Assembly (NCBI GenBank): GCA_046350815.1
Contig: JAXLZO010000001.1
Coordinates: forward strand, 1,140,001-1,172,000
Source of the DNA: Candidatus Saccharimonadota bacterium
GTDB lineage: Bacteria > Patescibacteriota > Gracilibacteria > BD1-5 > UBA2023
Reading direction: 5' to 3'
DNA: 32,000 bases
This document shows, one piece after another, positions 2,105 to 32,000 of this stretch. Made by a program: the position numbers and the translations under genes. A model generated the notes under the pieces. The model had not been told where the DNA came from and ran no database searches. It was given only the letters and a program-made list of their open reading frames with translations. The first letter of the stretch is position 1. Each line of letters starts with the position of its first letter.

Positions 2105-2151
2105 ACAGATTAACTAAATCATGAAACAAGGCTAAAAAATGAAAACAGATA

Positions 2152-5100: not shown

Positions 5101-7851
5101 ATCTGGATCCTGTGCATTAATCGCATTCACATTCACAATTACTGGATCTTTCGTGGTGTCAGCGCTTGTCACACTCAAACCAGACAGTGTTGGTGGAATA
5201 TTATCAACTTTCACCCATATTTCACGAGATGCACTTGCACCAGACTGATTTGATCGAACGGAAAGTCGTATAGGGAAACAACCAAGCTCATCAAAAGAAT
5301 ATGGAAATGTTTGAAGACTCGAAGTTTTTCCATTTGCTTTCCAAGAGTAAGAGAGATTTTGAGTTGTACCATCAACATTGAGACTATCCCGAGCAGATAT
5401 ATCAATACTCGATAGTCGAGAAATGGTATATCCTTCCTTCCCAACCCCACAAACACCTACTTCAGGAATAACGGTCTCACCAGCTTGAGATATACTGATA
5501 AGTGGAACTGGCGTATCCGAATCACCAACATAGACCACTCGCGAAACCGTATTCGCAATTCCAGTATTATCAGCACGTATAGTCAAGCGAACCGTATAGA
5601 TACCAGATCGATTATACACATGCGACATTTTACTATCTGGAACAGGGTTCGTTGTAACACCGTCACCAAAATTCCAAACAAATATTTTCGCTTCAGGCGC
5701 ATTTGCAACAAACAACATTGGATCACCAACTCGCACAATTTTTTGAGCTATTTTAAGATCAGCACCAAGGAGAGAATCAATGGTAATTTTCTTGCTCGTT
5801 GTAGTACTGAGCCCATTTGGACTGATCACCTCAAGGTCTACTGTATGTTCGCCTATTTCGGAAAGTTTATAAACACCAATGGCACCATTTCTCTGTGTAT
5901 CTATGAGCTCTCGTGGTTGTCCGTCAATTTTCCATCGATATTTGAGCTGATCTGCCGAATTAGTATCAGGATCTATGCTTTGAGTCGCATTGAGACGAAG
6001 AACATTTGGCTGTTCACTTGAAAATTTGGAGAGTGCAAAATTAGCAACTGGTGGCCGCGGATCAATAGTAATGACAACAAAATCTGTATCGGTTTTATTA
6101 TCAACAGTAGTAGCATTCAGTTTTACTGTATATTCTCAGACTTTCTTAAATCGATAATTAAGAGTTCCTCATTTGATTCTTGCAATGTCACGATTATCTT
6201 TGTTATCAATAATAATCCAATCATAAACCAGATTGAGACGAGAATTTGCAGTTGTTGTAGTGAATCTAAAATCATCTTGAAGAGATCCAGAAGTTTTTGG
6301 GGTAACAATACTCGCAATAGGATCACGAACCTTGAGAGTAATAGTTTTTCTTGTTACTTCACTTGAGTTATTCTTAAGAGCAAGTGATATATTATAATCA
6401 CCTTCTCGCGCATAAATTTGACGCTCAAGACGAGGTCATTGAAAATATGAAGTAGATCGTCAATTCCCAAAATCCCATTCTGTAGAGACAAATTGTGCGC
6501 CATCTTTTGAAGTTGATGCAGTCGCATCAATAACAAGTCCATTTCTTGCTTGTCCTGGAGTCACTTTCAACTCACTCAAATTATTAACGTTAATACCATT
6601 AATAAAAAGAGAAATATTTGCAAGCTTTGGGAGAACATTGATATCCGTACGGATATGTAGCGGAAGCACGTCAGTTTTTCCATTTACATTCTTACTATCA
6701 GAAGTGACATCAAGAAATACCGTATAGATTTTTTCATCTGGAAACGAATAAAGAAAAGACACGCCTCGTCCAATGATAACTTTTTCATTACGTGATCACT
6801 TAAACCACCAAACATAATTTTCATTTGGAATTTTCTTTCCAGAAGGATCTTTTACGTTATTAGCACGAAATGTAACCGTCAATGGGGCATTACCAGAATT
6901 TACACTCGAACCAATCTCTCAAGATATCCGACCAATATTTACTCATTCTTTAAATCCATTTATGAGACCTTCGAGTCCGGATGCTTCATCTTTGCTCTTT
7001 GGATTCGCAAGAACCTTTGAGAGAGCTACTTTAATCTTTGCAATTTTTGCAGCATTTACTGTTTTGACATCGTCAGGAAGTGTAAGACTCGATTGATCGA
7101 TAAGATTAGTGAGTTCTTGTACGGTTTCAGATTTTACACCCGTACTATTTTGTTCAAGAAATACCTTGATCATCAAGCGATCAAAATGAAACTTGTACTC
7201 ATCAAAAGTGCCAAGCATTACATCAGGAATTTCAGGATCTTGGAGAGCTTGAGCTGTGTCCACACCAATCACTGATCCGATTTGACGCTCGATAGTACTA
7301 CGAAAAGAAGTTGCTCATGCTTGAAGAATACCACCTTTTCCATCTTTATCACCGATCACAAATATTGTAATAGAGTATGCAAGAAAAATAAGTATGACTC
7401 CAAGAAAAGCATAAACAATGGTTTTCTTTGCGTTTTTCACCACCTCTTCATTTCATCATGAAACCATAATCTTACCACCTTGATAAATAATAAGGAGTAC
7501 ACATATAAGAGCTACGAAACCAAGAAGATAAACCACAATCGACTGAATATAATCAGTAAAAGTTCATCCAGTTGCTACTTTATTTTTAAGAGCTCATTCA
7601 AGCTCAGTTTTAGCAATTCCAGAAGTACATGCATCACCTACACACTGATTAATAATGGTCGCACCACAATCAGCATCCGTATAGAGTGAATCTGCAGTAC
7701 ATGCTGCGTAAGTAGTATTCACAAATCAAAGAGGTGATACTCAAGAATTCCCATGGATGAATGGAAAAAGGAAAGAAACGAGTGAAAAGAGACTCAAGAT
7801 AAGTCACACGAGTGGAACGCTCAGGCGCGTAGAATGAGATATTCGGTGCAT
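2152..7851 (-). CDS. Giant (about 1899 aa) surface protein: N-terminal TrbC/VirB2-like pilin domain, PKD repeat array, C-terminal TM helix and repeat-bearing tail
   Basis: A single frame runs from ATG 7851 to TAA 2152-2154 with TGA as sense. It joins track ORFs 6943-7272, 6460-6762, 5041-5829, 4819-5034, 4441-4653, 4123-4419, 3628-4071 and 2605-2994. N-terminus has a signal/TM segment, a 4-Cys stretch, and two TM helices flanking GGKIMVSGGNEEVVKNAKKT. At least eight PKD-type repeats are visible (TEWDFGNG, YRWKIDGQ, FVWNFGDGV, YSWKANGK, FKWDFDGDG, VTWELPDG). A TM helix (GTIILIGQVLGILFGVVVGLILMLLVFF) precedes an S/P/T/E-rich tail. Confidence 0.8.
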
Positions 7852-7892
7852 AGAAAGAAATTTGTCTTCACTACTCTACCCTATCTTGCCGC

Positions 7893-7928
7893 GTAAAGCA
7901 AAAGACGCTCTTGCAGAAGATCGTCTTT
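7893..7928 (-). terminator. Rho-independent terminator after the solute-binding protein gene
   Basis: Minus-strand reading is AAAGACGATCTT-CTGC-AAGAGCGTCTTT (6+4 bp stem with one A/G mismatch) followed by TGCTTT. It lies just downstream of the TAA at 7935-7937. Confidence 0.5.
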
Positions 7929-7934
7929 ATGTTA

Positions 7935-9431
7935 TTACTCTTGAATATCAAGACTACATACCTTGTCAAAGGCTGATTGGGAAAGGAGTTGTGCACGCTG
8001 ACAATTTATATATCAAACCAGTTGATTGAGTCATCATGAAATATCGCTCGATTTGATAACTTTTGTAAGTCACATGGTATACTCTAGATACAATCATGGA
8101 TTAAATGATACAATATTATTATCCTTTGGTATAAATGCAGCAAATCATGTACGTGGATAATTCGTTGTGAGATTACTGGTTGCTTGGGAATTCGCGATAT
8201 TTCTATTCGCTGAAATCATCATTGGCTCTCATACAGAATAGAGTTTTTGAGCTTCGGGAGTGGAGAGAAACGCAAGAAATGCAACTGCTCCAGATGGATT
8301 ATCCGTGTCTCGAGAGAGAGCAAGATACGAATAAAAAATAACACTCTGATTCTGAGTCCCAAACTGAGGAAGGGGTGCTGTTGCAAAATTTCATTTCATC
8401 AAAACATTGCTTGTGCCCACTCGTTTTGTCGCAAGCTGAATACTATCTATAAGCCTTGGCGTACCAATGATTGATGCGACTTTTCCCATAGCAAAGAGAT
8501 CAACGAGTTGATTCATTTTAGAATTACCCGATTTGATTGTCTCAAGCAAGCTTGATCCAGCACTTTGATTGGTAGAGGTGTTATTGAGGGAGCTATCTCA
8601 GTTATTACCCTGAGATCACTCTTCCACAAAATCTGATGGTATGGATGAGGTATTATCCGATGAATTCTGTATTGTAAGCTGTGATTTCTCAAACACTTCA
8701 AAACGTTTAATTGCTTGTAGTGCATTCGCATTAGTCAGTCCAGAGAATGAGTTGACTCATACGCTTACAAGTGATTGAGTCAATATCTCATTGATCTGGG
8801 GAGTAGATGGGGATAATACAAATCCGAGCGGGAAAGCATCTTCCGAACCATTCTTTGCAAGAGTTTCCATCTCTCAAAGAGTTTTTGGTGGCACTGGCAT
8901 CAAACTGGAGTTAAAGTACAATCCAAGTGATTCATAACCCATCGCTATGCCCTTAAGAGCAAGAACAACAATATTTCTTCCTTCGGCATCCAGTCCATTT
9001 CATGAAATAGTTAGATCTTTAAGAATAGTTGGATTATATGTTTGGGACAATTCTCCAACATTTACAACATCAGGTGGTATGGCTGTTACCTTATTTTCAA
9101 GATATTCTCCACCAACCGATGGGACCATAAGGATATCAGGACCTCGATTATCCGAAAAAGCACTGATAAGATTTTTCTCATAATCCGCCTGAGAAAGAAA
9201 CTTGGTAATAACAATGTCCGTATTTGCAAACTGTGGACGCACCTGTTTAAATCGCTCAATAATAGCATTGTATCAAGCACTATTTTCACCAACAATCCAC
9301 ATATCAATACGACCACCAACGAGTGGTGTTTTATTCTTTGCAGTATATGCCTTAATAGCGAACCAACCCAGAGCAATACTGATTATAGCAATGACAATAG
9401 CAACGAGGAAAATAGTTTTACGCGGAGACAT
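7935..9431 (-). CDS. Extracellular solute-binding protein (ABC transporter SBP family 1-like), membrane-anchored
   Basis: ATG at 9431, TAA at 7935-7937, checked codon by codon with only TGA interruptions. N-terminal TM anchor is [21 protein letters not shown]-like motifs include [32 protein letters not shown] and [17 protein letters not shown]. It carries a low-complexity N/S/T-rich insertion. Confidence 0.55.
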
Positions 9432-9825
9432 GAGAGAGCTGATTTATGATTTTTGTACGGAGTAATTCAAGTTCAGTCGATTCTGGTTTGGGATTTTGTG
9501 GAATATGGTTCAACTCAACATCTGATGGAATCAGATGAATATGTGTATGTGGTACTTCAAAACCCTGAATTGCAAAAATAATACGTTTCCTAGGAAAAAT
9601 AGCAAGCAACGCCTCTGATAGAGATTGAGATATTATCATAAGATGGGATAATACATCACTTGGCACATCCACCCATTGATCTATCTCCACCTTTGGAATA
9701 AGAAGTGTATGACCCGGCGCCTTTGCAAATATATCAAGGATGGCAATGCATATTTCATCTTCATAGACAATATATGCAGGGATATCACGTGAAATGATAC
9801 GCGAAAAAATGGATGTACCTGACAT
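9418..9825 (-). CDS. HIT-family (histidine triad) nucleotide hydrolase
   Basis: ATG at 9823-9825 gives [24 protein letters not shown]. The histidine triad motif HTHIHLIP is present. Stop is TAA at 9418-9420. The gene overlaps the downstream SBP start by 14 nt. Confidence 0.85.
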
Positions 9826-9926
9826 AAGGAAAATACTATAAAACATCAAAAGTATACTCAAAAAAAGAGATTGTCACGAAAAGTAGAAGAGATATAATAG
9901 CCATCGTATCTCTCTTCAATATCCCT

Positions 9927-10175
9927 ATGTGAACTTCCTGTACTAAAAACTCCTGTGAAAGTTGCCTTATGCCTTTTAGCAAAGATCTTGGAAAAAGAGA
10001 ATCAGAAAAATACTGTAGTTATTGTTTTAAAAATGGTGAACTCTGTTACAAAGGAAATAACCTGAAAGAATTCCAGAAAATATGTTATAATTCAATGATT
10101 AAAATGTGAATCAACTCAATTCTCGCAAAGTTCTATACGTTCTGCATTCGTTTTGCACCAAGATGGAAAAAATAG
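9927..10175 (+). CDS. Putative zinc-ribbon domain protein (Zn_ribbon_2/PF12674-like), 82 aa
   Basis: Sequence is ATG 9927, TGA(Gly) ... TAG 10173-10175. Pattern C-x2-C ... YCSYCFKNGEL ... FAPRWKK matches this small zinc-ribbon family as I remember it. It contains two in-frame TGA codons. Confidence 0.6.
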
Positions 10176-10176
10176 T

Positions 10177-10208
10177 AAAAATCCTAATTCTTAAAGAATT
10201 AGGATTTT
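10177..10208. terminator. Bidirectional intrinsic terminator between the convergent zinc-ribbon gene and dnaE
   Basis: Perfect hairpin AAAATCCTAATTC-TTAAA-GAATTAGGATTTT. T-rich tracts follow it in both orientations. Confidence 0.7.
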
Positions 10209-10381
10209 ATTTGCTGCCTCCCCTTCAGCAAAAGAGATTACAAAGAATGAAAGTTGAAACTGTTAACCTTCAGATACAACATTTGAGGATAGCCCTAAGG
10301 CATCAGATGCTCGATAATATAAATCACAATTGATTACATTTGTAAACACTGATGATTCAGAGGCTACAAGATTAGAAGATT

Positions 10382-13300
10382 TTAATGATATGAATTCGCC
10401 CATAATTTCCCTATAAATTCTTTCAACGATACCGTATCCTGAAGAGAAATTTTTGTCGAGACCAGAGATCAAGCTATTGAGAGAGTTATGAGGATTTCTC
10501 CTGAGGGGAGACTCTGAAGAAAAGATTTTAATGTTATGAGGTCTTCTTTTTTTGCAGATGGAGGAACATATATGGTATATGTCGACTCTCACTGTTCCAT
10601 GCGTTTTGATTCACGCTCCGATTGTTCATGTGCGATGATTCGCTCATTTCGAGCACGAAAATCCCTGAGGCTTTGTGCAAGCACTTTTTTTGGCAAGATT
10701 TGCACACGATTATTTTCCACATCTATCTTGAGATCTCCATCGATGAAGAGCACTTTTCATTCCACAAGATATTGCTCGAACTGATCATAATCCTTTGGGA
10801 ATACTACCATTTCAAATTCAAATCATACGCTTGAAAGCATTGCTACACCCATCAGTTTTCCAGTTTTTGTTGGCATTTTTCGAATACTCTCAACATAGCC
10901 AATGAGTCGTGCTGATGGAAGTTTTTGTCGATAATTTTTCTTTGAATCATCCAAAGTATCTGATGATGGAATTGGAAGAGGAGATTCATCCATTTGATCT
11001 ATATCCTCAATGGAATTCTGCGCATCCTTCATCTCATCAATCAAATCAAGTCATTTCATCTGAGATCGTATCACCTCTTCAAGGTAGCGAAATGGTCATC
11101 AAGAAGCTGGATATCACATCACCATAATCTCATTATTCATCTTATCAACGTAATCAAACTCGTCAAAACGCCGTATGGAAAAATCATGTTCTTTCAAGCT
11201 TTCATCATCGAACATATCAAAAAGCCCAACCTGTGAATTTGATTGTTTTTTCTGATGCTCCTTATGATAGGCAAGTATTTGAGGCATTGCTTCAATGAGC
11301 GTTCGACGATTCTCAAAACGATCAAGACATCAGGAGTGAATCAATGCTTCAAGTGATTTTTTATTGATAACATCACCTGAAAGACGAGCAATCATATCAT
11401 GAATTCCCTCGAAATCTTTCTCCTTTCGATGTTCGATAATATCTTGGATGGGAGTATCTCAGAGTCACTTCAATGCCTTCAGACCAAAGCGAATTTCACC
11501 AGCATTCAAAAAGGTAAAATGTTTACGGGATTCATTAATATCTGGGGGGAGGACTTCGATCTTTTTGGATCGACATTCCTCGATCTCCATACGAATACGA
11601 TCTGTATCTTCCTCATCACTACACATAAGCGCTGTCATGAATTCTGTCGGATAGTACGCCTTGAGATAAGCAGTCTGGTAAGCAATGAGAGAATAACATG
11701 CGGCATGGGATTTATTGAAACCGTAATCAGCAAATGGCAGGATAATATCATCAAAGATATACACAGCAAGATCTTCCGGATGTCATTCTTTTTTAGCAGC
11801 ATTGATAAAAATTTGCTTCTGCTCCATAAGAACTTCAAGAAGTTTCTTTCATATAGCACGCCTCAAGATATCCGCCTGAGCAAGGGAAAATCATGCAAAT
11901 GCTTGTACGAGTGCCATGATTTGCTCTTGGTATACAGCAATACCATAGGTTGGCGCGAGGATGGCTTCTAATGAGGGATGAGGATATTTCACTATTTCCT
12001 TGCCATGTTTACGAGCGATAAATGTTGGGATATACTTGAGTGGACCAGGACGATAGAGAGAAACCATAGCGATGACATCTTCGAATACACTTGGTTTGAG
12101 TTCACGCAGATACTTACGCATACCGGTGGACTCAAATTGAAATACTCAAGTTGTATCTCCATTCGCAAATACTTCAAATACCTTTGGGTCTTCAAAGGAA
12201 ATCTTGAGGAGATCAACATCAACATCGTGTACATCTTTGATAATAGCAAGTGCTCGCTTCATGATCGAGAGATTGCGGAGACCGAGAAAGTCCATCTTGA
12301 GAAGACCTAGATCCTCCAAAGGTTTTTGCGAGAATTGTGTCACAATGCCTTCACTATCTTTTGGTGGATGTTGAAGAGGACAGTAATTTGTCATCGGCTC
12401 AGGCGCAATAATCACCGCACAGGCATGTACACCAAGCTGACGAACGGTACCCTCAAGTATTCGAGCCGTATCAACAACCTTATGAATCTGAACATCCTCA
12501 TCATAGAGTGTCTTAAACTCGGGTGAGTCATTGAGTGCTGATTCAATCGTTGTTCCGGGTTTTGCAGGGATGAGTTTTGCATGAGTATTCATTTGAGCAA
12601 AAGGAATACCAAGGGCCTTCCCTACATCCTTAAATGCTGCTTTTGCAGCCATCGTACCAAAGGTACAGACCTGAGCTACATGATCCGCTCCATATTTTTT
12701 ACTCACATATTCGAGTACTCGCTCACGCTCATCATCAGCAAAATCCACATCAATATCCGGCATAGACACACGTGCAGGATTGAGAAATCGCTCAAAGAGA
12801 AGACCGTATCGAATCGGCTCAACATCGGTAATTTTAGATACATAAGCAAGTACCGCTCACGCAGCTGATCCTCGACCTGGACCGACAGGGATATCATGAT
12901 CTTTTGCCCACTGAATATAGTCAGAAACAATATTAAAATATCCGTTAAATCCCATGAGATTCACCACCGTTAATTCATATTCCAAGCGTTCAAATATTTT
13001 TTGTTCACGTTCTCCAAGTCTATCAAAAATCTCACGCTTGCGAGGAAGAAAGCTCTGATGTGCAATTTGAATCAGCTCTTCTACCGGGATATCTTTGAGT
13101 TTCTTTTCTGGTGGTGATGTGAGTTTTTTACGGATACAAATATCAATCTCCGCAGGACTAAGAGTAAATTCATATCGTTCAAGCATACCCGAGATACACA
13201 CTGATCGAAGAAGCCACTCTTCACTATCGAGCACAACTTCCTCAGAAGTGCAGGTAATGCGAAATTTCTCATACTCGGCACGCTGATCATCCGAGAGAGG

Positions 13301-17546: not shown

Positions 17547-17563
17547 ACATGACTCAGCTCTCC

Positions 17564-18895
17564 CTATTTCGTCATAAAAGTATCAAGAATTTTTCGTGAT
17601 TTGATACGAGATTTGAGGTCTTCGTAGTAGGCATCACCGGGAACAAGTTTCTCTCGAAGTCGAGTTTTCACAGTCTCATTCTGATATTCCGCGATTACCA
17701 TATCGATCTCTTTTGCTACTTCTTCATCAGTGATAGGAGCCTCAACGATAGATTCAAGCGCTCGAAGAATTGCCTGAGTTTCGAGACGGTTCTTGGCAAT
17801 TGGTGAGAGTGTTTCAGACTTGAAATCTTCAACCGACTTTCCTGTATGATTGAGGTAATCCTTGAGTTGATATCCTTGTTCAGACATACGAGCATTTTCT
17901 TGCTTGTAGGTGTCCTCAATCATAGCCTCAGTGGCTTTTGGTCCGATATGAATCTCACCAGTTGCCTTGAGAGCATCAATAATCGCAATCTCTGTATCGA
18001 GACGAGCTTCTGACTCTTTTTTCTTATAGATTTCTTGCTTGATAATATCACGGAATCCCTTCATATCTGTCTTGACTCCACGAAGTTGTTCGATAAATTC
18101 TTCATTCCATTCAGGTCGGTGTGGCTTTTCGATTTGTTCAATACTTACCTCAAAATAAACCTTTCTTCCCTTATACTCATCAGAATGATATTCTTGTGGA
18201 AATACAATATCAAATCCAAATTTGTCTCCAACAGCGTGAGCAACAAGATTCTCTTCGAATCCAGGTATAAATGAATTGCTACCAATGACAAGAGGAAAAT
18301 GATCTACCTTTGTCTCAGTAAGGGCCTTGCCATCTTTTGCCTCATATCCTTGGCACGAAAGGGTAACACGATCCCCTTGTTCTGCAACCTCTGATGAAGC
18401 CTCAAAACCATCTTCAGAATGACCATGAGCATCATGAAAATGAGTAAATCGATCTTCAATTGCCTTGATCTCTGCATCGATATCCGCATCAGTCACATCA
18501 ACAGACTTCATTTCTACTTTCACCGCCTTTACTTTGTCAGCGTCAAGGAGAGCAACAGGAGTCGTCTCAACAACGAGCTTGATTTCGAGTGGATCGATCG
18601 ATACAACAGCCTGAATTTCACCAGCTGCAGATGGAGTTACATCTGCCTTACGAAGTGCCTTCTGATATTCCTTATCGAGGAAAATATTGAGAGCTTCACT
18701 CTGAATAGTCTGAGCACCGACCTGAGCGAGAACGACATCATCAGGAATATGTGATCCTTTGCGAAAACCCTTAATAGAAGCATTTGTACGAGCTGCATCG
18801 ATAGCTTTTTTGATATATTCACCAAAAGCTTTGCTATTTTCCTTGATAGTGAGCTCCACTTCAACAGGAGAAAGTTGTTTCTTTTCGACAATCAT
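17564..18895 (-). CDS. tig: Trigger factor (ribosome-associated chaperone/PPIase)
   Basis: Intact 443-aa ORF ending in TAG. N-terminal ribosome-binding motif GFRKGSHIP matches the trigger-factor signature GFRxGxxP. An FKBP-like middle follows (VIGSNSFIPGFEENLVAH). No in-frame TGA. Confidence 0.9.
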   Translation of the reverse strand: MIVEKKQLSPVEVELTIKENSKAFGEYIKKAIDAARTNASIKGFRKGSHIPDDVVLAQVGAQTIQSEALNIFLDKEYQKALRKADVTPSAAGEIQAVVSIDPLEIKLVVETTPVALLDADKVKAVKVEMKSVDVTDADIDAEIKAIEDRFTHFHDAHGHSEDGFEASSEVAEQGDRVTLSCQGYEAKDGKALTETKVDHFPLVIGSNSFIPGFEENLVAHAVGDKFGFDIVFPQEYHSDEYKGRKVYFEVSIEQIEKPHRPEWNEEFIEQLRGVKTDMKGFRDIIKQEIYKKKESEARLDTEIAIIDALKATGEIHIGPKATEAMIEDTYKQENARMSEQGYQLKDYLNHTGKSVEDFKSETLSPIAKNRLETQAILRALESIVEAPITDEEVAKEIDMVIAEYQNETVKTRLREKLVPGDAYYEDLKSRIKSRKILDTFMTK

Positions 18896-19022
18896 AGAGT
18901 TATATTTGAGAGTAAAAACGGTGAGAGTATAGAGAAAATTTCATTTTTCCCAAATTTTGATATACAATTCACAGAGAATTTGCATTTTGAATTTTGACTG
19001 TCTTCTATATCATCTCTCCAAT

Positions 19023-19096
19023 CTCCCTGTAGTTTAGTGGAAGAACAAGGCACTCCTAAGGCTTAGACACAAGTTCGATCCTTGTCGGGGAGACCA
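19023..19096 (+). tRNA. tRNA-Arg (anticodon CCU), CCA encoded
   Basis: Hand-folded cloverleaf. Acceptor is CTCCCTG/CGGGGAG and D arm is GTTT-AGTGGAA-GAAC. Anticodon arm is AGGCA-CTCCTAA-GGCTT, with U33, CCT, A37 and a 31:39 A/G mismatch. Variable loop is 4 nt, T arm is ACAAG-TTCGATC-CTTGT, discriminator is A, then CCA. Confidence 0.8.
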
Positions 19097-20553
19097 AATG
19101 AAAAATCCATGTTTTTTATCTCAGAAAAGAGTTTGTTTTCCTGAATTACAAGCTCTTTTTTCGTGTTTATAAAAAGTTCGATTTCTAGTTTTGCATGGAT
19201 GATAGCTTTTTCAGAGGAATTACCCATTTCGTAGCGTTCAGAAAGGCTTTCTATGAGTTCGAACATTTCTCATACCCTCTTCTCAATATCGTACTTATTT
19301 TTGCTCTGAAGTTCGCGTTTTTGAGCGAGTAAAATAACAATCTTTTCAGAAAAATTTGCTTTTTGAGCTTTGTAATCTTCGTTACTTATAACTCATTCTA
19401 GATATCCATCCATGAGCCTTTTTTCTTTGATTCGAATTTCTCAAATTTCCAGATCAATTCCCTTTGCTTGCTCCGCATGACTTGCTACTCTTTCAGATAA
19501 TAATTCTTTGGCAATTTGAACAAATAACGGATACATGTCCTTAGGAATATAGAACTCCTTAAGACGTTGAATAATAGCTTCTTGAACCTTCTTTTGACTA
19601 ATATTTGCACGAGCTGAAGATCTCAAGTTTTGAGAGCGATAATATATGTATTTATCCTTCTTGATCTCACTGGTCAAAGTAATACCAAATTCATCTTTGA
19701 TCATTCATTTATAGAGATAATCAATCTTAATTTCCTTGTTATACGAATAGAATCCTCTTTCTAAATTTGCAACCTTCTGAAACAAAGAAGATGATATTAT
19801 TGGCTCATGCTCCCCTTGATATATTTTCCCAGAGTAACGCATCATTCCAATATAAAATGGATTCTTAAACGTACGATCAAGTGCTTGATAAGAAAAGGTA
19901 AATCACTTGAGGGATCCATATTTATTCTGAAAATATGTAGATATATCAGGTGTACTTCTTTTTTGTTCTCACCGCATTTGAAACATCTCCTTCACAATAT
20001 TGGAAGTTTCCTTATCTATCTCAACTCATCGTCCAACTATTTTGCCATCTTGAACTTTTGTGACATTTTGGTATCCAAAAGGAGCCTTATAAACACACTT
20101 CCCTTTCTCTACACAAGTAATCATTCTTGCTTTTACATTTCTAGCACGAGTATCATTATCAAATTTTGCCATTCAAAAATTCAGAAGAAGCATAAAGAGT
20201 TCACTCACCTGCTCTCAAAAATATTTTTGAGATGATGTATAAATACCCTTAATATATCCCTCTTCCAGTAAGCCAAGAACTTTGGCACTATCAGTATTAT
20301 TACGAGAAAGACGACTCACTTCATCCACAATGATGAAATCTACTTTTCATTTTTTACAAAGCGATACCATGGAGTCAAAAATTGGTCTCGTTCCACTCTT
20401 CTTCGCACTTGCAGATTCAAAAAGTGTATCAATGAGAGAGCATCACTCTTGTTCTAAAACTCGAGTACAAGCAGACAGCTGAGATTCAATAGAGTTTTGT
20501 TGTTTATCATCCCTATCCGTAGACTTTCTACAGTATATAATAGCCCTATTCAT
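19063..20553 (-). CDS. Large serine recombinase / integrase (496 aa)
   Basis: ATG at 20553, TAA at 19063-19065; joins track ORFs 19441-19704 and 19063-19266. N-terminal resolvase catalytic domain is MNRAIIYCRKSTDRDDKQQNSIESQ (YxRxST serine) ... FIIVDEVSRLSRN. Recombinase domain shows KAPFGY and NPFYIGMMRY. The C-terminus is long and coiled-coil-like. The last 34 nt overlap the 3' part of tRNA-Arg. Confidence 0.85.
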
Positions 20554-22080: not shown

Positions 22081-23121
22081 TTATCCTTGGGCTTCCCAAT
22101 GAAGGAAGATCATGTCTTTTTTTATCTCGAATATATCTCAATTTTGATATTTTTTCCGAAGATTTTTCCGAATAGTTCGAAGGAGCGAAGTTCTAATATT
22201 TTCTCCTTGAATATCATTTGCACTCAAATATTTAAATGTGCTTCTACTGCATTGATCCCAAAAATTGACCAATTCTCAAACAGTTATCTTCTTGGTATCT
22301 GGAAAGCATGTAAAATATTGAGCAAGAAAAGAGAGAAATTCACTAGCCTTACTTTTTTTAAGAATAAAAATATGGTTATTAATGAAAAGCTTTCAATCCC
22401 TAAAGGAAACCTGAGAGACATATTCTTTTGATTCTGATCTCTTTAAGTCATCGATAAGATTTTGTATAGTTTCACTATCGGCATGAAATGAACAAGTTGC
22501 ATGATATGATTTATCAAGATTGAGTTGCCTATTGAGTTCATCTTCACCAATATCATCCTCAATCTTTTCTTTTATCAAGTCTAATATTTCTGAGACTTCT
22601 GTTTGAGAAATAGAAGTCTCCATAATTGGTGGCAGGGTTGTAGGTATGGGTTTTATGAACTTCTCAAAAGAGAGCTGAATTTGTCTTTTCCCTTGTTTAT
22701 CGACGGTAAAATACCCTTCTTTTTCTCCCATTTGAAGGATATTTTCTGATATATTTTTATGAACTATTTCTATGACACCAATATTGTGAAGTTCTTTGAT
22801 GGTATTACGTCTTTCCCCCGCTATTCGTGCAAATGCGGTTGCATCTGGAAAAAACTGATTACTAAAAATATTTTCAGAATAGTGATTTGTTTTCTTATAG
22901 GTTAATAAGCAGCATCCATCGAGCATATCTTGTTCAGGCAATGGCATATCTTCACCATTCTCCTCCTCGTATATTTTCCGAAGCTTCTGAATCTCCACTT
23001 TTATTCAATAAGATGTCTTTATAGCCAATAAAATATCTTGAAATAGATCTCGTATTATCATCTTTTCAAGGGAAGATTTTGTATTGTAATATTTAAGGAA
23101 TTTTGTGAAGTGTTGGTTCAT
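22081..23121 (-). CDS. Hypothetical protein (up to 346 aa; start uncertain: ATG 23121, ATG 23061 or GTG 22998)
   Basis: The frame of track ORF 22393-22998 continues through two TGA codons to TAA 22081-22083, checked codon by codon. It starts 43 nt downstream of res on the same strand. I recognise no domain with confidence. Confidence 0.5.
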
Positions 23122-23164: not shown

Positions 23165-26100
23165 TTAAATAAGAATCTTCTGAACCAGATCATCGAAACT
23201 TCGTATCACATCATACTTCACATCAGTGTGGCAGAGAGACTCAAAATGTTTTTTTGCATATCGAATTTTCAGATCTTCTGTACCTTTGAGATCAAGTGAA
23301 CTCAAACTTCACTTTGTCTCAGCTATGAAGTATATGTACTTCACATCAGACCTATCAAATACGATTGCCCAGTCAGGATTATAATTCCCTACAGGAGTAG
23401 ATATCTTAAATCCACTCGGGAGCTTCGCATATACAAGTACTTGCTCAGTCTCTAGTTCTGAGGCAAAACTTCTTTCTACTTGCGAATCAGTTTTTACATA
23501 GTCATAGATATGCTTATTCACTCGGAGGATATTTTCCTTGAGAGATCCTCTAAAATTCTTAAGTGTAAAAATATCAGTCGAATACTTCTGATCCGTTTTT
23601 GTATAAGTGATATTACTGATAAGTGTGGATGCTTTTTGTTCTTCGATAAGTCGAGAAACTTTTTTGATAAAGTCTTCAGGATTCTCACGGAAAAGTGAGA
23701 ACTTCAGTTCGTGTATCCGCCTCAGGATTTCTGCAATAGTTCATCTGCGAAGGTTGGTATTCTTTGCAATCTCTCACACGAGATCATAGCGAATATTACC
23801 GAGGATATTTGAAGTAAGATTGGTTTGCCTTTCGAGCTTTGTGAGACTTGTATGTGATCTTAAGCTTTCTTCATCGATAGTGTCATTTTGTGTTGCAATT
23901 GTAACACTAACCGTAACTCGATTAACTTCTAAGTGAGCATTCAAACTCTCGACACTTTTCTCTATGAGTTCTTTACTATCAAAGTCTACTTCATATGCAG
24001 TGATGGTATTGATTTTGGACCAGAGATCTTGGAACTCTTTCTTCGAGAAGTTATCATTTGGTTTTAGTATTGCTTCATTCACATTGTCTTCCCGACCATC
24101 ATCTACCGCCTTATAGTTATCTGTCGAGTATACATCTTGAACTATCTTCACGATCTCAGGAGTGAATGAAGAAAACTCTGTCGGGACTGCAAATATTTTC
24201 GATTCGATATCTGCGATACATTTCTCTGTAACCTTATAATCAGAATCAAGATATCCCTTCATCTTCATATCGAAGATAAGGTTCATAGAACTCGAGTCAT
24301 CAAATATAAATTTCTCTCCGAGATCATTTTTGAGTACTCGACCCTTAAAGACATCGGTTGTCAGTTTTCTCGGACGATTCGAGAGAGTGTCTAGGATCTC
24401 TTTCTGTAGCTCACTCGCAAACGTCTCATACGATTCGCTCGCAACTACCGTGAGAGTGTTATAGTCAAAGAACTCATTCTCGAGAGTATGATGATCCATT
24501 CGATCACCGTTTGCATTGACACAAATTCGGAGTCATCGTCCTATCTCTTGTCTCTTACTGATAGTAGACTGTGACATCTTGAGTGTACATATCTGGAATA
24601 CATTCGGATTGTCCCATCATTCACGAAGTGCAGAATGAGAAAAAATAAACCTGGTCGGCTCCTCAAAACCAAGGAGAACTTCCTTCTTTTTCATAATGAG
24701 ATCGTAGGCTGAGATATCATCACTTCCGCCTTCTCATTTTTTCTCACTCGAATCTATGAATTTTCACTTCTTGTCTACTGAGAAGTATCCATTATGAACA
24801 TCACTCGCCTTGAATCTCTCAAGATATTTTCGATAGTCTCATTCAAAAAGAGTTTGCTCACGAAGTATATCCTCGTATTCCTCTTCAAAAATCTGAGCAT
24901 ATTCTCCTGGTATAGGATTTCCTGATTCATCATACCCACGATACTTTGCCACTTCATCTATGAAGAAAAGTGAGAGTACCTTGATCCCTTTATGGAACAT
25001 AGTACGCTCTTTCTCGATATGGGACTTGATCGTCTCTCGTATCTGGATACGTCGGATATGCTTATCATCCACATTTCCCATAGCTTGTCAGACTCGGATA
25101 GTGACGCCATTGGTGAATGATACTGTGTTCGTAATTCCGTTGATCTCCTTCACGATGAATCCTCTATACTGTTCGAGTTCACCTGATAGCTCATAGAGAT
25201 TGTCTCATTCTTCTACTTTTTTGAGTACTTTCTTGATCCCTGAATCTTGCTTTATTTCCATCTCCATCTTGATATGTGCGGATGGAAAACTCTTGGTGCT
25301 GATATTGATACGGTCAAGGAAGAGGAAACTATTTGTCCCCACATTTCCGACTACTTCGATTCATTTCACATTGATTTTCTTTACGAGCTTTTGATTATAT
25401 GCATCGATAGCATCGAGCCTGTATATTTTATTGAAGTCTTGTTTGTGTGTCGCTGAATACCTTAGGGTGAAAAGTGGATGAAATTCATGAAGGGTATTCT
25501 CAGCCTTATCTCAGAATCTTTGAGGCTCATCGATAATGAGTATTGGATGAGTTCACTTGATTATATCGATAGGCTTTTGTGATCCGAGACTATCAAGAGT
25601 TTGGTATATCTTTTTTGATTCTTTACTGGTTGTCGCAAATGCCTGATAGTTCATGACGATCACTTCGATATTGGCACTCGATGAAAAGTTCTTGATGTTT
25701 ACGAGATTGGATTTGTTCCCAGTATCATAGATAAAAAATCGAATCTTCTTTCCATAGAGTTCCTGGAAGTGCTCGGCGGTGATCTCGAGTGACTTATTCA
25801 CTCATTCACGGATAGCAATCGATGGTACCATGATAATGAACTTACTCCACCCATATTGCTTGTTGAGTTCGAATATCGTCTTCGTATAGACATAGGTCTT
25901 ACCTGTTCCTGTCTCCATCTCGATAGTAAAATTCTTTCCTCACTCGAGCTTCTTCGAGACAGGGAGTCATGATTCATTTTGGATGTTATTGATATTGGAA
26001 AGGAGAGTTTCTTCGGATATCTCGAGTGGCTTATTCGAAAACATCTCTTCTATTTCGATTCTTTTTCCGAAAAGATTATCATCTATCACTCTTCGATCTG

Positions 26101-26200
26101 CGATATCCTTTCGGAATCCTTTGGTTTGTCATACAAAACAATTCACCACCGCATTGGTAGCATCGTTTTGATATCATTGTTGTTTGAATTTGAGTTTCAT
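23165..26200 (-). CDS. res: Type III restriction-modification system, restriction/helicase subunit (1011 aa)
   Basis: ATG at 26200, TAA at 23165-23167; joins track ORFs 25553-25801, 24839-25081, 23774-24499 and 23309-23521. Motifs: [11 protein letters not shown] (Walker A), LIIDEPQRF (DEPx motif II), [34 protein letters not shown] (motif VI). C-terminal PD-(D/E)xK nuclease is YNPDWAIVF...YFIAETK. About 18 in-frame TGA. Confidence 0.92.
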
Positions 26201-26218
26201 AGATTCTGTATGGTGCGA

Positions 26219-28171
26219 TTATATAACTCGGATATCTGTTTCAGGTGAGAGCTTCGAGAATCTTGTCTCGAAATTGATACGATCGGCATCACTCTGAAAA
26301 CTCGAATCCCTAAATACGACTCGCAGTGGACGGAGTGAGGCAATCTCATCGACGAGTGCGAAGTCTACGTGATCATCGAAACATGCTATGAGAGAGTCAC
26401 AAGCCACGGAGTATATCGTAGCACCATGAGACACTCGCTTCTCTATCGGGAGATCGAGCGTGAGACCGAGGTCGAGCATCACCTGAGTGAGGAGATCATC
26501 TCCAGTTCTATCTTCACGGATATTGCTCTCCATCTCGAAGAGTCTATCCTGAGTCACCTCTGTTGGATGATAGTAGACATCCTTCATATTCGATGTATCG
26601 AGACGATACACACGGAATCCGATATCCAGATTTTCGATACCCTCTTTATCTTTATTCTCTTCGACTATCTTCTTCCCGGCTCTGCGTATGCGCTCCTTGC
26701 CGATCTCACAGATATTACTATATCCTGCCTTATATGCCTCACTCTCCTTATCTGTTTCCTCTGGTATCTGCACCATGATGAACTTCCTATTCCCTTCATC
26801 TTCAGCATTAAGCTGTATCACTGCATGGGCTGTAGTAGCTGAGCCTGAAAAGAAGTCGAGAATGATATCTCATTTTTGACATAACGAATCGATCATTTTA
26901 TTTACTACATTTACTGGTTTAGGATTGTCAAATGGTAATCCAAGAGCATCATCACTACCTCAAAAATATAATAGAGATGATACATTCTCAAATAGGTTCT
27001 CTTCAAGAAAGTACATTCTTCTGGGTTGGACAGTATTATCATTTCCAAAATATATTTGATTTTGTTTTAATAATGCATCCATAGAACTATCAGTAAATCT
27101 CCATCATTTTTCAGGAGTTGGACATGGTAATTTTGTTATAGGGTGGACTAATGGTCTATGTGAACGTGTCTCGGGTTTATCTGGAGCTGCCATAGATACA
27201 GATTGAAACACTCTTCAACTATCGGATATCAAATTGTATGCCTTTTCTCATTCGCTAAAGTTTTGCATAGATATCCAATCTTTAAATTCAAATCTAACTA
27301 AATCCGAAATTCATCAATGTTTAGATATAAGTTGCTTAGCTTTTTTTATTATCTTCTCAGCATTTTCTTTCTTTCTTTTAAAATCATTTCAATTTTTGAA
27401 ACTTTCTTTGTTTTTACAATAAAATAAAATGGATTCATGTTGTTGTGCAATTCCGACAACTTCTCATTTTGGATTTCTTTTATCCCATATTATTGTTCAA
27501 AGGTTATTCTCTTCACCAAATATCTCACTTAATATTTTATCGAGATTTGTATATTCATTCTCATCCATATGTATAACAATAGCTCCGTTATCGGAAAGTA
27601 AGTCTCTCGCTACTACGAGTCGCTCATACATCATCGAGAGCCAGTCACTATGGAATCGACCATTGGTATCTGTATTTTTCACGAGTCGTCCTCACTCCTC
27701 ATCTACTATCTCGAGTCACTCCTCATATTCATCTTTCGATACTTTGAAGTTATCGGTATAGACGAAATCCTTTCCAGTATTGTACGGAGGATCGATATAG
27801 ATCATCTTCACTTTCCCGAGATAGGATTCCTGGAGGACCTTCAGGACTTCGAAATTATCTCACTCGATATAGAGATTCTCTGTCGTATCCCAGTTCACAC
27901 TGTCCGCGACTACTGGACGGAGAGTCTTAGAGATCGGGGTATTTGCCTTTAGGATACTCGCTCGCTTTCCTGGCCAGTCGAGACGATATCGTTCTTCTCC
28001 TCACTCTACGAGTGTTGACGAGAACATCTGACGGAAGAGATCATAGTCGATAGCTTTCGTGATAGTGCCATCAGCGTTCTCAGTCTCGGTGATGATATTC
28101 GGGAAGAGTTTGGCGAGAGCTTCGATATTTGCCTGTATGATATCAGGAGTGAGCATGTCGAGTTTTTGCAT
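26219..28171 (-). CDS. mod: Type III R-M Mod subunit, N6-adenine DNA methyltransferase (650 aa)
   Basis: ATG at 28171, TAA at 26219-26221; joins track ORFs 27497-27682 and 26219-26821. Motifs: [12 protein letters not shown] (DPPY motif IV), [48 protein letters not shown] (FxGxG SAM motif). The central segment (about 26900-27450) is AT-rich and presumably the target-recognition domain. Confidence 0.92.
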
Positions 28172-28182
28172 AGGGAGAGAGG

Positions 28183-28809
28183 TTATGAGATGGTGAGATT
28201 TGAGAGTTCTTTTTCTTTTTCCTTTAGGAGGACATTCAGGGATACTTTTTTCTTGAACTGTTTCTCGGTGGATATCTTATTCTGGAGTGCTTGGATTTCG
28301 TTTTTGAGTGTCGTAATCTTTCGTTCTGTGGCAACTATCTCTTCGAAGTCATGCGAGTCTATCGGTGCTTCTCGGATAAATTTCTTGATAATATTTTGGT
28401 AGACTTTCTCGAGTGTGATACCATGGAAATCGAAATCGATTTGCTCGTCCCATTCGGAGAAATAGTAGGATTTATTTGGATCATTCTTCAGAGTGATACC
28501 ATACGCTCTACTATCCGCATAGGTGAAGAGATAGAGTATCGGATATGGTATGAGTGTATCTATGACCTTCAGGACGGATATAGGTATCTTTTTTTCCTTG
28601 AGTTCTATCTCGAAAATCTGGAGTTCTTCGACCAGTGGAGTCGGAGGGATAGAGAGTGTCTCGTGTGAGAGTTTATATTTCCAAGTGATCTTTGCGATAG
28701 CATCAGTGAACTCGTCTTTTATCCTCGTTCAAAGAGAACCTTTTCTGAAAAATGTAATTTTCGGAATAGGCTTATCTACTTTGCAAGATGGAGGGAGAAG
28801 GAGTTCCAT
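28183..28809 (-). CDS. DUF4391-like protein (208 aa), unknown function
   Basis: ATG 28807-28809 overlaps the SNF2 stop (TAATG). TAA at 28183-28185 lies 11 nt before the mod ATG. Sequence features: IPKITFFRKG..., ITWKYKLSHETLSI, VEELQIFEIELKEKKIPISVLKVIDTLIPYPILYLF, and a C-terminal coiled coil. The DUF4391 (PF14335) call is from memory of that family and its usual position between an SNF2 helicase and a methylase. Confidence 0.55.
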
Positions 28810-31800
28810 TATCGTATGATAACAAAGGTAATGAGTTCGAAGTCTTTGAGTCACTTTATCGTACCGAGGAGTGCAGTCGTGCCACCAGGAGTGAAGAGAC
28901 TATCGATATCTGATTCATCTTTCACATGGATGATAGACTCGATCGATGCTGAGAGTAGAGCCGAGTATTCGTCCATATTCTTTCCGTCATTGGTTTCTTC
29001 ATTGAAGATTTCAAATACTTCTCGTATCGGTTCAGAATGTCACTTCGAGAGAACCTTGAGGATATCGAGTGTTGCTTTTACATTCAGATGATTCGATAGG
29101 ACTTCACCATTTCGACTGATATAGACTATGTAGAAAGGATGGAGCTGATTCGTATTCTCGATATTTATATCTTTGTTGATATTCTTTAGGACGAATATCG
29201 CACCCTCTTCGATACCACGAGCAGGATCTTTTTTGCAGACCGTGTGCATACCGTTTGGGACTCATTCGAAAGTTCACTTTTCATTTATGTAGTTGATGAG
29301 ATCCATGCGGAAATCATTGAGTCCGAGATCCATGATCGAGATACCACTATCCATGTCTTCGATATCTACGACTTCTTCTTGGAGCTTCTCGAGTTGTTTT
29401 TTACGGAAGAGGAGATCACTCGATTCATTTGTCAGGACATTATCTTCACCTGTAGCGGTTGCATCTACGATATACATGCGATTCTCGACTCGAGACTTGA
29501 GGTTGATATAGTCATCGAGAGAGAGTTGTGGCCAGAAGTTCACGAGCTGTATATCTGTATTCTTCGAGCCTATTCGATCAACTCGTCAGAATCTCTGGAT
29601 GATACGTACAGGATTCCAGTGGATATCATAGTTCACGAGCATATCACAGTCTTGGAGATTTTGTCACTCCGAGATACAGTCAGTTGCTATGAGGATATCG
29701 AGTTCCTGCTTATGAGCTTCACTTTCTCTGCGTTGTTTTGATATTGGTGAGAAGTGTATGAGGAGATTGTTGAACTGTTTATCGAGCGGGATACTACATT
29801 CATTGGTACCACTTCCTGTGATCTTCGCCGATGCGAGTCAGAGTGAGGTCGTAAATGGTGTAAGATGCTTGAAGAGGTAGTTCGCTGTGTCTGCAAAGGC
29901 TGTAAATATCAGAACCTTTTTATTTCCTAGATTTATAGGATTCTTGAGTTTGTGAGCTATCAGGTCTTTCAGATCATTCAGTTTGCTATCATGTGCAGGT
30001 GTGACTTTTTCCATCTCTTCGAGGATTTCCCGAGCAACGATAAGATCCTGCAAGAGGTCTTGCTTCCACCCGAGAGTATTCATATCTGCGAGATTGATTT
30101 TAACTTTATCTCAGATACTGAAGTCATCGCTGAGCCAATCATCATTCTCTTCATCGAGATTCGCATCATCGACTTGGACAAATTCTGTCTGCACTTGTAT
30201 GCCATCTCTCTCGAAGTCATCGATACTCTTGATGATTCACTCGACACTCGTGATAAACTTCGTGAGTGTGATACGAAATGAATCCACTGAACTCTCGAGA
30301 CGCTTCAGAAGATTGATTTTCATGAGCTTCTGGAGACTTTTTTCTCGGGTTGTCTGCTTGAGTGTACTATTCTCAGTGATGTTGGTATCATAGAGTTCGC
30401 TATAAAAAGATCTCTTCGTCGGAAGTAGATAATCAAATGGCGTGTATACTGCCATGTTGAGACGAGAGAGTTCTCCATAGAGTTCCTTGATCTCCATGAA
30501 GCCTGCAATATCTGTGATACCAGAACGGATTGTTTTCGGAGGGAGTCGATTCGGGAACTTTCCTATCTTCTCAGTTTCATAGTATTTTTCTATATGCCTG
30601 CGACTTCTCGCTATCGTTATAGAATCAAGAAGCTTGAAGAAATCAAAATTGGTATTGAGTCTTCGAAGTAATTCCGCTGGAGTTCTTTCATCGATATCGA
30701 GCTTAGACCACTCATTGAATGTCTTTTGTGCATTGGCGAGTATGGTATTGATAGATTTTGTCACATCCATCTTCTCATCGACCATATCTGTATGCCCCTC
30801 ATAGGCCAGAGCGATTTGATTTTTGAGATCAGTAAATCGATTATTTACAGGTGTTGCTGAGAGCATCAGCACTTTTGTCTTCACTCAAGCCCTCATTACA
30901 TCTTGGAGGAGTTTTTGGTATCGTGTGACTTTATCTTTTCTCGGTGAGTTATTACGAAAGTTATGAGACTCATCGATCACGACAAGATCATAATTTCCCC
31001 AGTTTACACGAGAGAGGTCTATACCATTGGATTCTCAGCGTGTCCTTCAGAGGTCTGTATGATACAGAACATCATAATTGAAGCGGTCTTTTACGAGCGG
31101 ATTGTCTTCATAGTTATTCAGAAACGTGAGCCAATTATCTCCGAGCTTCTTTGGACAGAGGACGAGGATGCTCTTATTTCTTTCTTGATAATATTTTATC
31201 ACACCAAGTGCTGAGAAGGTCTTTCAGAGTCAGACACTATCGGCAAGGATACAACCATTAAATCTCTCGAGCTTGTTGATAACCCCGAGTACCGCGTCCT
31301 TCTGAAAATCATAGAGCTTATTCCAAATAACAGACTCCTTAAATCCAGTTCTCTCATTAGCAAGCTCATCTTCAGTAATGTCTTCCAGAAACTCATCGAA
31401 GATATTGTAGAGAGTCAGATAGTATATAAACTCAGGAGAGTTTTCTTTATAGAGATTTGATATATATTCCTCAACTTCCTTCGTGATATCCTGAAGAGTA
31501 TCTTTATCATTCCATACTTGCTCGAAAGTATCGAGAAAACTTTTTGTCATCTCGTATTCGTCTATCTTCATCACATTTCTGATAAGAGAGTTATCGTTCT
31601 CAAATCCAAAACCTGCACTACTAAACTCATCGATTCACTGATACGCTGTAATATCATTCTCATTTTCCACGAGAAACTGAGTCTGCATGTATCTATTTGA
31701 TACATTGGATCTAAATTCTACCTTTCACTCAATCCATTTTTTACACTCTTTTGCGATAGCTCGTCACTTAAGCTCATTCTTGAGATTGATTTCGAACTCT

Positions 31801-32000
31801 GAACCACTTACAGCTTTCTTAATATTGTTTGCATAGATCTCGAACATCCTCTGCTCCTTTTTAATCGACTCTCTCTCAATAAAGGCTGAATCAGTAAATA
31901 TAAATTTCATCCTCTCTACACTTTGTAGCTCTGTCCTGAGGCTATCGAATCCATATATGGAAAATATTGAAGCTGCAATATTGAGTCTGGAGCCTTTTTT
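28809..32000 (-). CDS. SNF2-family helicase-related protein (partial; 5' end beyond the right edge, more than 1060 aa in window)
   Basis: One frame is open from 32000 to TAA 28809-28811; joins track ORFs 31230-31574, 30237-30884, 29838-30083, 29274-29543 and 29040-29249. Motifs: ILADSV-G-LGKTFSA (motif I), DLVVIDESHNFRN (DExH), MLSATPVNN (III), IATDCISEGQNLQDCDMLVNYDIHWNP (V), IQRFGRVDRIGS (VI). An N-terminal extension upstream of the helicase core is unassigned. Confidence 0.88.

Follow-up and report, generated by a model that had tools for sequence, protein, structure and literature searches.

A four-gene type III restriction-modification operon with an SNF2-family ATPase and a DUF4391 protein in a code-25 bacterium belongs to a widespread, uncharacterised clade

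We analyzed 32,000 nucleotides of Candidatus Saccharimonadota bacterium (GTDB lineage Bacteria; Patescibacteriota; Gracilibacteria; BD1-5; UBA2023; GenBank assembly GCA_046350815.1, contig JAXLZO010000001.1, positions 1,140,001 to 1,172,000), referred to below as the window, and found that the operon at 23165-32000 is an ordinary and apparently functional representative of a clade of four-component type III restriction-modification (R-M) systems that is widespread and annotated, yet uncharacterised. On the minus strand and in the order of transcription it encodes an SNF2-family ATPase (28809..32000), a DUF4391 protein (28183..28809), the type III methylase Mod (26219..28171) and the type III endonuclease Res (23165..26200). 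In classical type III systems Mod and Res suffice, and cutting depends on ATP and on two inversely oriented unmethylated sites. We assume, with a probability of about 0.6, that the four proteins form one functional unit built on type III R-M, and place much less confidence than that in any specific motor role of the SNF2 protein, which would rest on analogy. A preliminary description of the operon, made from the sequence alone, had already named these four genes. Its assignments agree with Pfam and PADLOC profiles for the SNF2 protein, Mod and Res and with Pfam for the DUF4391 protein, and all profiles that it proposed for checking (SNF2, Helicase_C, DUF4391, N6_N4_Mtase and ResIII) were matched.

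The operon becomes visible only when TGA is read as a sense codon: translation of 23165-32000 with table 11 yields nothing but short open reading frame (ORF) fragments, whereas TGA as sense gives four long minus-strand ORFs. The four genes contain 50 in-frame TGA codons, of which 26 stand at columns with a glycine majority in code-11 homologues and none at a column with a tryptophan majority. Therefore, TGA encodes glycine (code 25), as the preliminary description had it, and code 4 (TGA as tryptophan) was ruled out. Some of these codons specify conserved glycines of the ATPase, for example in SNF2 motif I (DSVgLgKT) and motif VI (QRFgRVDRIG; lower-case g denotes TGA). The 5' end of the SNF2 gene, which has 17 in-frame TGA codons, lies beyond the window; 1063 codons and the stop are visible, and because the 98%-identical homologue of the nearest relative (locus L001) has 1083 amino acids, only 20 codons are missing. 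Homologues in general measure 1080-1110 amino acids. The tight packing described before was recovered to the nucleotide: the SNF2 stop codon and the ATG of the DUF4391 gene (208 amino acids) overlap as TAATG, 11 nucleotides separate the latter from mod (650 amino acids) and 18 nucleotides separate mod from res (1011 amino acids), all on the same strand. The operon is free of simple-sequence repeats, which speaks against phase variation of mod. As a side observation, reading TGA as sense also creates many long ORFs antisense to real genes, such as 17549-19066 on the plus strand opposite the trigger factor gene, and naive longest-ORF calling assigns wrong strands in code 25.

The evidence for a clade comes from the recurrence of the four genes. 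A DUF4391-based scan with one genome per species returned 80 loci, and gene order at the genome loci was determined by tblastn with the four window proteins. The order SNF2, DUF4391, Mod, Res on one strand was present at 45 of the 46 genome loci with enough flanking DNA, so the arrangement is not due to chance; the single exception (L085) is a decayed locus with a Mod fragment and without Res. At a further locus (L070) only a truncated DUF4391 gene was found, with no SNF2 gene upstream. The same order was seen at all 11 plasmid loci checked. Five of them were reached via DUF4391 at only 22-31% identity (Acinetobacter, an E. coli IncFIB plasmid, Methylotuvimicrobium, Aeromonas and Photobacterium), and six via Res at 35-49% identity (Listeria, two Lactococcus, B. 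cereus, Aeromonas hydrophila and the archaeon Methanomethylovorans), each with the SNF2 and DUF4391 pair upstream; in Listeria the gene in the DUF4391 position is annotated merely as a hypothetical protein. Thus, the statement in the preliminary description that this arrangement recurs in bacterial genomes can be extended to archaea, and the linkage of SNF2 with Mod and Res in relatives, on which that description had staked its reading, is there.

Outside this group the picture changes. A Res from Lactobacillus crispatus with 30% identity is adjoined by Mod alone, and no SNF2 or DUF4391 gene is located nearby, and plasmid Res proteins of the EcoP1 type, annotated as plain type III endonucleases, reach about 32% identity over just 62% of the length. 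The boundary of the clade consequently falls between Res proteins of at least 35% identity, which come with four genes, and those at 30%, which come with two. By their Res proteins the four-gene systems stand apart as a clade of their own, with a nearly obligate association of the four genes, and none of the DUF4391 loci examined had another partner system.

Across phyla, moreover, the four genes are transmitted together as a block, and only the target-recognition region of Mod has been exchanged between close relatives. Pairwise protein identities across 44 operons (43 loci and the window) correlate tightly between SNF2 and Res (0.97), SNF2 and DUF4391 (0.95) and DUF4391 and Res (0.94); the values of Mod with the others are about 0.8. 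Mean pairwise identity is 68% for the SNF2 protein, 62% for Res, 54% for Mod and 49% for the DUF4391 protein. Purifying selection acts on all four genes. Of 50 complete loci, 42 retain the four ORFs intact, and the broken genes in this set (SNF2 in four cases, Mod in two, Res in two and DUF4391 in one) are too few to rank the components by dispensability. As the SNF2 protein is the most conserved component, we assume that it acts on DNA and on conserved partners and not as a sensor of variable phage proteins.

The cassette is found in metagenome-assembled genomes (MAGs) and genomes labelled Saccharibacteria, Peribacteria, Gracilibacteria, Dojkabacteria, Minisyncoccus and Vampirococcus, and the archaeal loci (L021, L036, L071 and L097) comprise MAGs labelled Woesearchaeota or Nanoarchaeia and a plasmid of Methanomethylovorans hollandica. 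DUF4391 proteins from members of the candidate phyla radiation (CPR) and from DPANN archaea are about 50% identical to those of Bacteroidota or Desulfobacterota, which points to horizontal spread. The view that such an operon is notable in a defence-poor CPR lineage was overstated, as the cassette occurs under many CPR and DPANN labels. CPR bacteria lack CRISPR or are poor in it but rely on R-M (PMC12455944), so that the presence of the cassette is to be expected and is not surprising.

In sequence, Mod and Res of the window agree with type III R-M at every point, from the protein types to the position of mod directly upstream of res. Mod matches N6_N4_Mtase of Pfam (E = 1.8e-34), the PADLOC model MTase_III (PDLC03634; E = 6e-225, residues 1-650) and the structure of EcoP15I Mod (E = 8.5e-75, residues 48-628). 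Its DPPY motif (residues 127-130) precedes FSGS (441-444), an S-adenosylmethionine motif of the FxGxG type. Res matches ResIII (E = 2.2e-16) and RE_endonuc (E = 7.9e-34, residues 895-1000) of Pfam, the PADLOC model REase_III from end to end (PDLC03647; E = 2.7e-299) and EcoP15I Res in the PDB (E = 1.8e-75). The code-25 translations give both type III models over their full length in PADLOC, a check that the preliminary description had proposed. The superfamily 2 ATPase motifs of Res read TGTGKT, DEPQ, SAT and QEIGRGLR, and its C-terminal PD...ExK endonuclease site is represented by PDW (942-944) and ETK (961-963). Judged by these features the Mod-Res pair lacks nothing that a classical two-gene type III enzyme has, and the two extra genes accordingly replace no missing part. 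The likeness to EcoP15I and EcoP1I extends over nearly the full length of both proteins, with Mod before Res and the same motif types; the differences are the two additional upstream genes, which are near-obligate in the clade of the window, and the separate clade of its Res.

The 208-amino-acid protein has an unambiguous family match, which the preliminary description had likewise made a test of its reading: residues 4-202 align with positions 2-232 of the 232 positions of PF14335 (E = 1.2e-38; 133.8 bits against a cut-off of 29.9), that is, over the full length. The family is large (2317 clusters at 50% identity, E<=1e-3), and its members nearly always occur as stand-alone proteins with about 205-230 amino acids and are mostly basic (median isoelectric point 9.2). 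Of 50,697 phage records only two, both metagenomic contigs without annotation, contained it. An AlphaFold2 model, made on a 91%-identical homologue (mean predicted local distance difference test score, pLDDT, 87; predicted template modelling score 0.77), shows a core of the alpha/beta type (residues 1-145) and behind it two long helices (155-207), which are joined by a turn with the conserved sequence EKQFNKK. The earlier characterisation as a small coiled-coil protein agrees with the long C-terminal helices of the model. Foldseek returned no significant structural relative in the PDB (best E = 0.13, template modelling score <0.25) or in BFVD (best E = 0.05), and profile searches against the PDB and PHROGs gave no significant match. 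A conserved E..ELK strand prompted us to consider a PD-(D/E)xK nuclease. This idea found no support, because the order of secondary structure elements differs, there is no conserved upstream aspartate, and neither Foldseek nor hidden Markov model searches found nuclease matches.

The SNF2 protein was described before as longer than 1060 amino acids with the motifs of its family, in agreement with the 1063 visible residues and with motifs I (DSVGLGKT), II (DESH), III (LSATP), V (SEGQNLQ) and VI (QRFGRVDRIG). Pfam identifies SNF2-rel_dom (E = 6.7e-11; 42.2 bits, cut-off 24.9) and Helicase_C (E = 1.8e-14; 54.3 bits, cut-off 23.5), and the PADLOC model 'HKD+Snf2' (PDLC01075) covers residues 1-1027 with E = 8.7e-127, followed by DrmD, BrxHII and HmaA as the next-best profile matches. 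The ATPase core (residues 228-825; 29526..31319) carries a long insertion between the two RecA-like lobes and gave weak but consistent phmmer matches to SMARCA5, ISW1, Snf2 and RapA. Behind it lies a C-terminal domain (residues 826-1063; 28812..29525) with an isoelectric point of 4.6, and conservation within the protein is highest in these approximately 240 residues, with a mean column identity of 71% across phyla. They matched no Pfam family, and a 14-sequence profile found no significant sequence match in the PDB.

The N-terminal extension, which the preliminary description had to leave unassigned, can now be assigned to the phospholipase D (PLD) fold on the basis of a structural model. At the sequence level the domain (window residues 1-205; 31386..32000) matches no Pfam family and has no meaningful PDB match, so that 'HKD+Snf2' of PADLOC is its sole label; a PDB match of a helical stretch to cullin-3 (E = 0.016) was judged spurious. 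The AlphaFold2 model of a 263-amino-acid homologue fragment, 63% identical and calculated from a 63-sequence alignment, has a core with pLDDT of about 90 and one disordered loop. Foldseek aligned it to SauUSI (E = 3.7e-6) and NgoAVII R (E = 4.8e-6) as well as to NucT, Zucchini, phosphatidylserine synthase and TrmBL2, with 26 PDB matches at E<=1e-3 and BfiI just above this threshold. We therefore predict a PLD fold, although one without the catalytic HxK...D motif: Pfam PLDc gave no match even at E<=10, no invariant or near-invariant histidine is present in alignments of 16 or 63 sequences, and the strand presumed to correspond to HxK reads ..IQ.Q/F.. in an alignment judged by eye. PLD nucleases require the histidine of HxK as nucleophile, and since this residue is not conserved we read the domain as catalytically dead, which would leave Res as the only evident nuclease of the system. 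Like the C-terminal domain it is acidic (isoelectric point 4.7). In PLD nucleases the PLD-type domain is the dimer interface, and by analogy the N-terminus of the SNF2 protein may have a docking or dimerising role.

Although the gene order is fixed, the operons are open to additional genes. In about half of the related operons at least one of the three junctions holds additional genes on the same strand (L004, L009, L011, L016, L021, L022, L044, L060, L069 and approximately 25 others); the window operon is without inserts. The largest insert cluster is RhuM, present at 15 loci and always between Mod and Res, and further families are Bro-N, KilA-N, ORF6N, PDDEXK_3, the 23S-rRNA-intervening-sequence protein, DUF1016/YhcG and Fic. 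The same set of hitch-hiking genes is known from type I R-M operons. Candidate defence genes are nested inside the operon of Aeromonas media plasmid pE31A (L088), with a 900-amino-acid ATP-binding protein between DUF4391 and Mod and a pair of an AAA ATPase and a DUF4276 protein between Mod and Res. On the Lactococcus cremoris JM1 plasmid pJM1D (L091) the SNF2 gene is split by IS712 and DUF4391, Mod and Res are intact, which makes this plasmid a natural and testable SNF2 knock-out; pUL021B is an example with an intact cassette. In a B. cereus plasmid (NZ_AP022904.1, 66240-79982; L092/L093) drmA and drmB (DUF1998) are located directly upstream of SNF2-DUF4391-Mod-Res, and the six genes of this hybrid operon are connected by overlapping or tight junctions. 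This suggests that the SNF2 protein and the methylase may cooperate with defence helicases in the manner of DrmD and DrmMI. The cassette is present twice, on separate contigs, in several MAGs: an uncultured bacterium (L018/L019), Scalindua (L026/L067), Elusimicrobia (L045/L074), a Bathymodiolus symbiont (L055/L059) and Vampirococcus (L013/L041).

How could the four proteins work as one unit? Mod would recognise a short asymmetric site and methylate the DNA of the host, and Res would combine an ATP switch with PD-ExK cleavage of unmethylated foreign DNA. The SNF2 protein would act as a double-strand-DNA translocase that adds active, directional movement on DNA; it would probably be dimerised or docked via its dead, acidic PLD domain, and the basic DUF4391 protein would probably tether it to the Mod-Res complex. 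Its movement could clear bound proteins ahead of the sliding type III complex or supply the collision that triggers cleavage. Restriction would then be more efficient than with a classical two-gene type III enzyme, or would depend less on a pair of inversely oriented sites. The charge pattern, with acidic end domains of the SNF2 protein (isoelectric points 4.6-4.7) and a basic DUF4391 family (median 9.2), is counted here in favour of a single machine.

Several points weigh against such a unit. EcoP15I works alone, and Mod and Res, which are no less complete, may restrict unaided. The insertion of unrelated genes at the junctions means that translational coupling is not essential and that neighbours need not be partners, and at some loci the SNF2 gene is disrupted next to intact Mod and Res. 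Simple co-transfer would also give co-divergence. In addition, roadblock clearing and collision are roles suggested by analogy, and the structural models represent homologues (91% and 63% identical) and not the window proteins themselves. We treat the strongest version of the proposal, an ATP-dependent machine of an undescribed kind in which a DUF4391 protein with a new fold holds an SNF2 translocase on Mod-Res and turns passive sliding into driven movement or a triggering collision, as quite unlikely. If it were true, the requirement for two head-to-head sites, which offers phages an escape route from type III systems, would be removed, and the clade would be a mechanistic bridge from type III R-M to systems with SNF2 proteins and methylases (DISARM and Hma/BREX-related).

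The best placed of the alternatives, although still unlikely in our opinion, is that two systems stand side by side, with SNF2 and DUF4391 as a self-contained defence or anti-plasmid module next to a self-sufficient type III pair. The match of Mod and Res to EcoP15I nearly end to end, the tolerance of the operons for foreign genes at every junction and the loci with a broken SNF2 gene beside intact Mod and Res would all fit. However, a DUF4391 gene with another partner system was not found among the loci examined, the order is fixed at 45 of 46 genome loci and at 11 of 11 loci on plasmids, even with identities as low as 22%, and the pair lies upstream of all plasmid Res genes checked with at least 35% identity. 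Moreover, the extra proteins contain no evident effector, given that the PLD domain lacks the catalytic histidine and the DUF4391 protein matches no enzyme. A module which restrains or times Res, and in this way prevents self-cutting in a new host or after DNA damage, seems more doubtful. SNF2 and DUF4391 are the first genes of the operon and would be made before Mod and Res, safe establishment should be important for a cassette so mobile across phyla, and several MAGs harbour two copies. On the other hand, classical type III systems do without such a module, a 1083-amino-acid ATPase that is the most conserved component would be an expensive regulator, and the natural SNF2 disruptions next to intact Res argue against a lethality of Res without SNF2.

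Very improbable is a relationship to DISARM or BREX in which a core of SNF2 motor and methylase blocks replication of unmethylated DNA and Res is an addition or back-up: DrmD, BrxHII and HmaA as next-best profile matches, the drmA-drmB genes joined to the cassette in B. cereus and the N-terminal HKD plus Swi2/Snf2 layout of published type-2 BREX-related helicases (PMC12839542) speak for it, but tblastn detected DrmA and DrmB neither in the window nor in the other 90 loci and only on the B. cereus plasmid, DrmD stays far below threshold (153 bits against an NCBIfam cut-off of 610), the four operon proteins match neither DUF499 nor DUF3780, the loci with gene tables show no recurrent PglZ- or BrxC-like neighbour of the cassette and likewise lack DUF499 and DUF3780 next to it, and the co-divergence of Res with SNF2, the tightest of all pairs (r 0.97), is unlike that of an add-on. 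Membership in DISARM was rejected because of the DrmD score and the absence of DrmA and DrmB. The likeness to DISARM class 1 (DrmD, DrmMI, DrmA, DrmB and DrmC) consists of an SNF2-like ATPase and an adenine methylase in a defence operon, whereas DrmA, DrmB and DrmC are absent here and from 90 related loci, the methylase is a type III Mod, and a type III Res and a DUF4391 protein are present.

In architecture the SNF2 protein comes closest to the helicase of the type-2 BREX-related systems, which has a PLD/HKD domain, a Swi2/Snf2 core and C-terminal domains and is accompanied by an N6-adenine methylase, a DUF499 ATPase and a DUF3780 protein; its HKD domain is taken as the primary nuclease (PMC12839542). 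In the window clade, in contrast, the HKD residues are missing, a separate Res is the nuclease, and DUF4391 and Res take the place of DUF499 and DUF3780. Hma, in which a methylase and an ATPase accompany an SNF2 protein with a nuclease at its C-terminus (PMC11232893), is a different system from the four-gene cassette. SauUSI, the best structural match of the PLD domain, shares the order of PLD and helicase; however, it is a single-protein, modification-dependent type IV enzyme with an active PLD site, whereas here the site is lost, the motor is of the SNF2 type and the operon contains a methylase. No paper on the combination of SNF2, DUF4391, Mod and Res was found in the searchable literature, which leaves out most subscription journals. 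There, 'DUF4391' occurs only in an enrichment table and in an apparent slip for DUF7941, and 'PF14335' and 'IPR025503' do not occur. This fits the earlier remark that the mechanism has not been worked out.

Compared with the nearest relative of the window operon (L001), identity is 98% for the SNF2 protein, 94% for Res and 89% for the DUF4391 protein, but only 66% for Mod. Homology at the DNA level covers 23177-26836 and 27603-32000, with 85-90% DNA identity, and is interrupted in the middle of mod. The central variable region in between (26837..27602, minus strand), presumed to be the target-recognition domain, has been exchanged: Mod protein identity to L001 is 10-38% there, compared with 80-94% on either side. 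This is a recent swap of the presumed specificity region, and the operons of the window and L001 should therefore recognise different sites. The homology to L001 ends near the stop codon of Res, and the flanks differ.

A 346-amino-acid ORF (22081..23121, minus strand) starts 43 nucleotides 3' of Res. It has no Pfam or PHROG match and no homologue in the 90 related loci, and the sole terminator-like hairpin found is located 3' of it (22032-22006); it may be co-transcribed with the operon as a lineage-specific fifth gene. Beyond this ORF follow a weak Rep_trans-like ORF, which remains below the Pfam cut-off, and a large serine recombinase gene with Resolvase and Recombinase domains (19063-20553, minus strand), whose 3' end is overlapped by a tRNA-Arg(CCT) gene (19023-19096, plus strand). 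A tRNA gene overlapped by a recombinase gene is a classic mark of an element integrated at a tRNA gene, and 19023..20553 is the probable left end of an island that bears the operon and has its other end outside the window. Homologues of the recombinase adjoin the cassette in two other lineages (L009 and L027). To the left of the island there are genes for a trigger factor and a cation-efflux transporter, both confirmed by Pfam, and deaminase-like, HIT-like and DnaE genes, whose translations were judged by eye. Based on the chromosomal genes (trigger factor, transporter and DnaE) the window is part of a code-25 chromosome in which a tRNA-linked island bears the operon, and not a free mobile element; the preliminary description had placed the operon on a table-25 mobile element. 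At the far left (2-7851, minus strand) there are two very large ORFs, one of 700 amino acids, which runs off the window start, and one of 1899 amino acids. Inspected by eye, both resemble secreted or membrane-anchored proteins that are rich in repeats and have Ser/Thr/Pro-rich tails.

New in this analysis are the assignment of a dead PLD domain, the lack of a structural relative of DUF4391 in the databases searched, the boundary of the clade and the figures for co-divergence, together with the swap of the Mod specificity region and the DISARM hybrid of B. cereus. For the window itself the result is a modest one: a code-25 bacterium carries a member of the clade on a tRNA-linked island, with a methylase specificity region that was recently swapped. 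As PADLOC has no model for DUF4391, such loci are probably reported as plain type III R-M, and defence-annotation tools likely under-call them. Close analogues on E. coli IncFIB plasmids, such as the operon at 3234-12562 of CP057716.1 or that of NZ_CP104619.1, are testable without recoding. Textbook type III systems consist of two genes, whereas a clade that reaches from CPR bacteria, DPANN archaea and methanogens to Firmicutes and E. coli plasmids keeps two more under strong purifying selection, which means that a part of type III biology is still undescribed.

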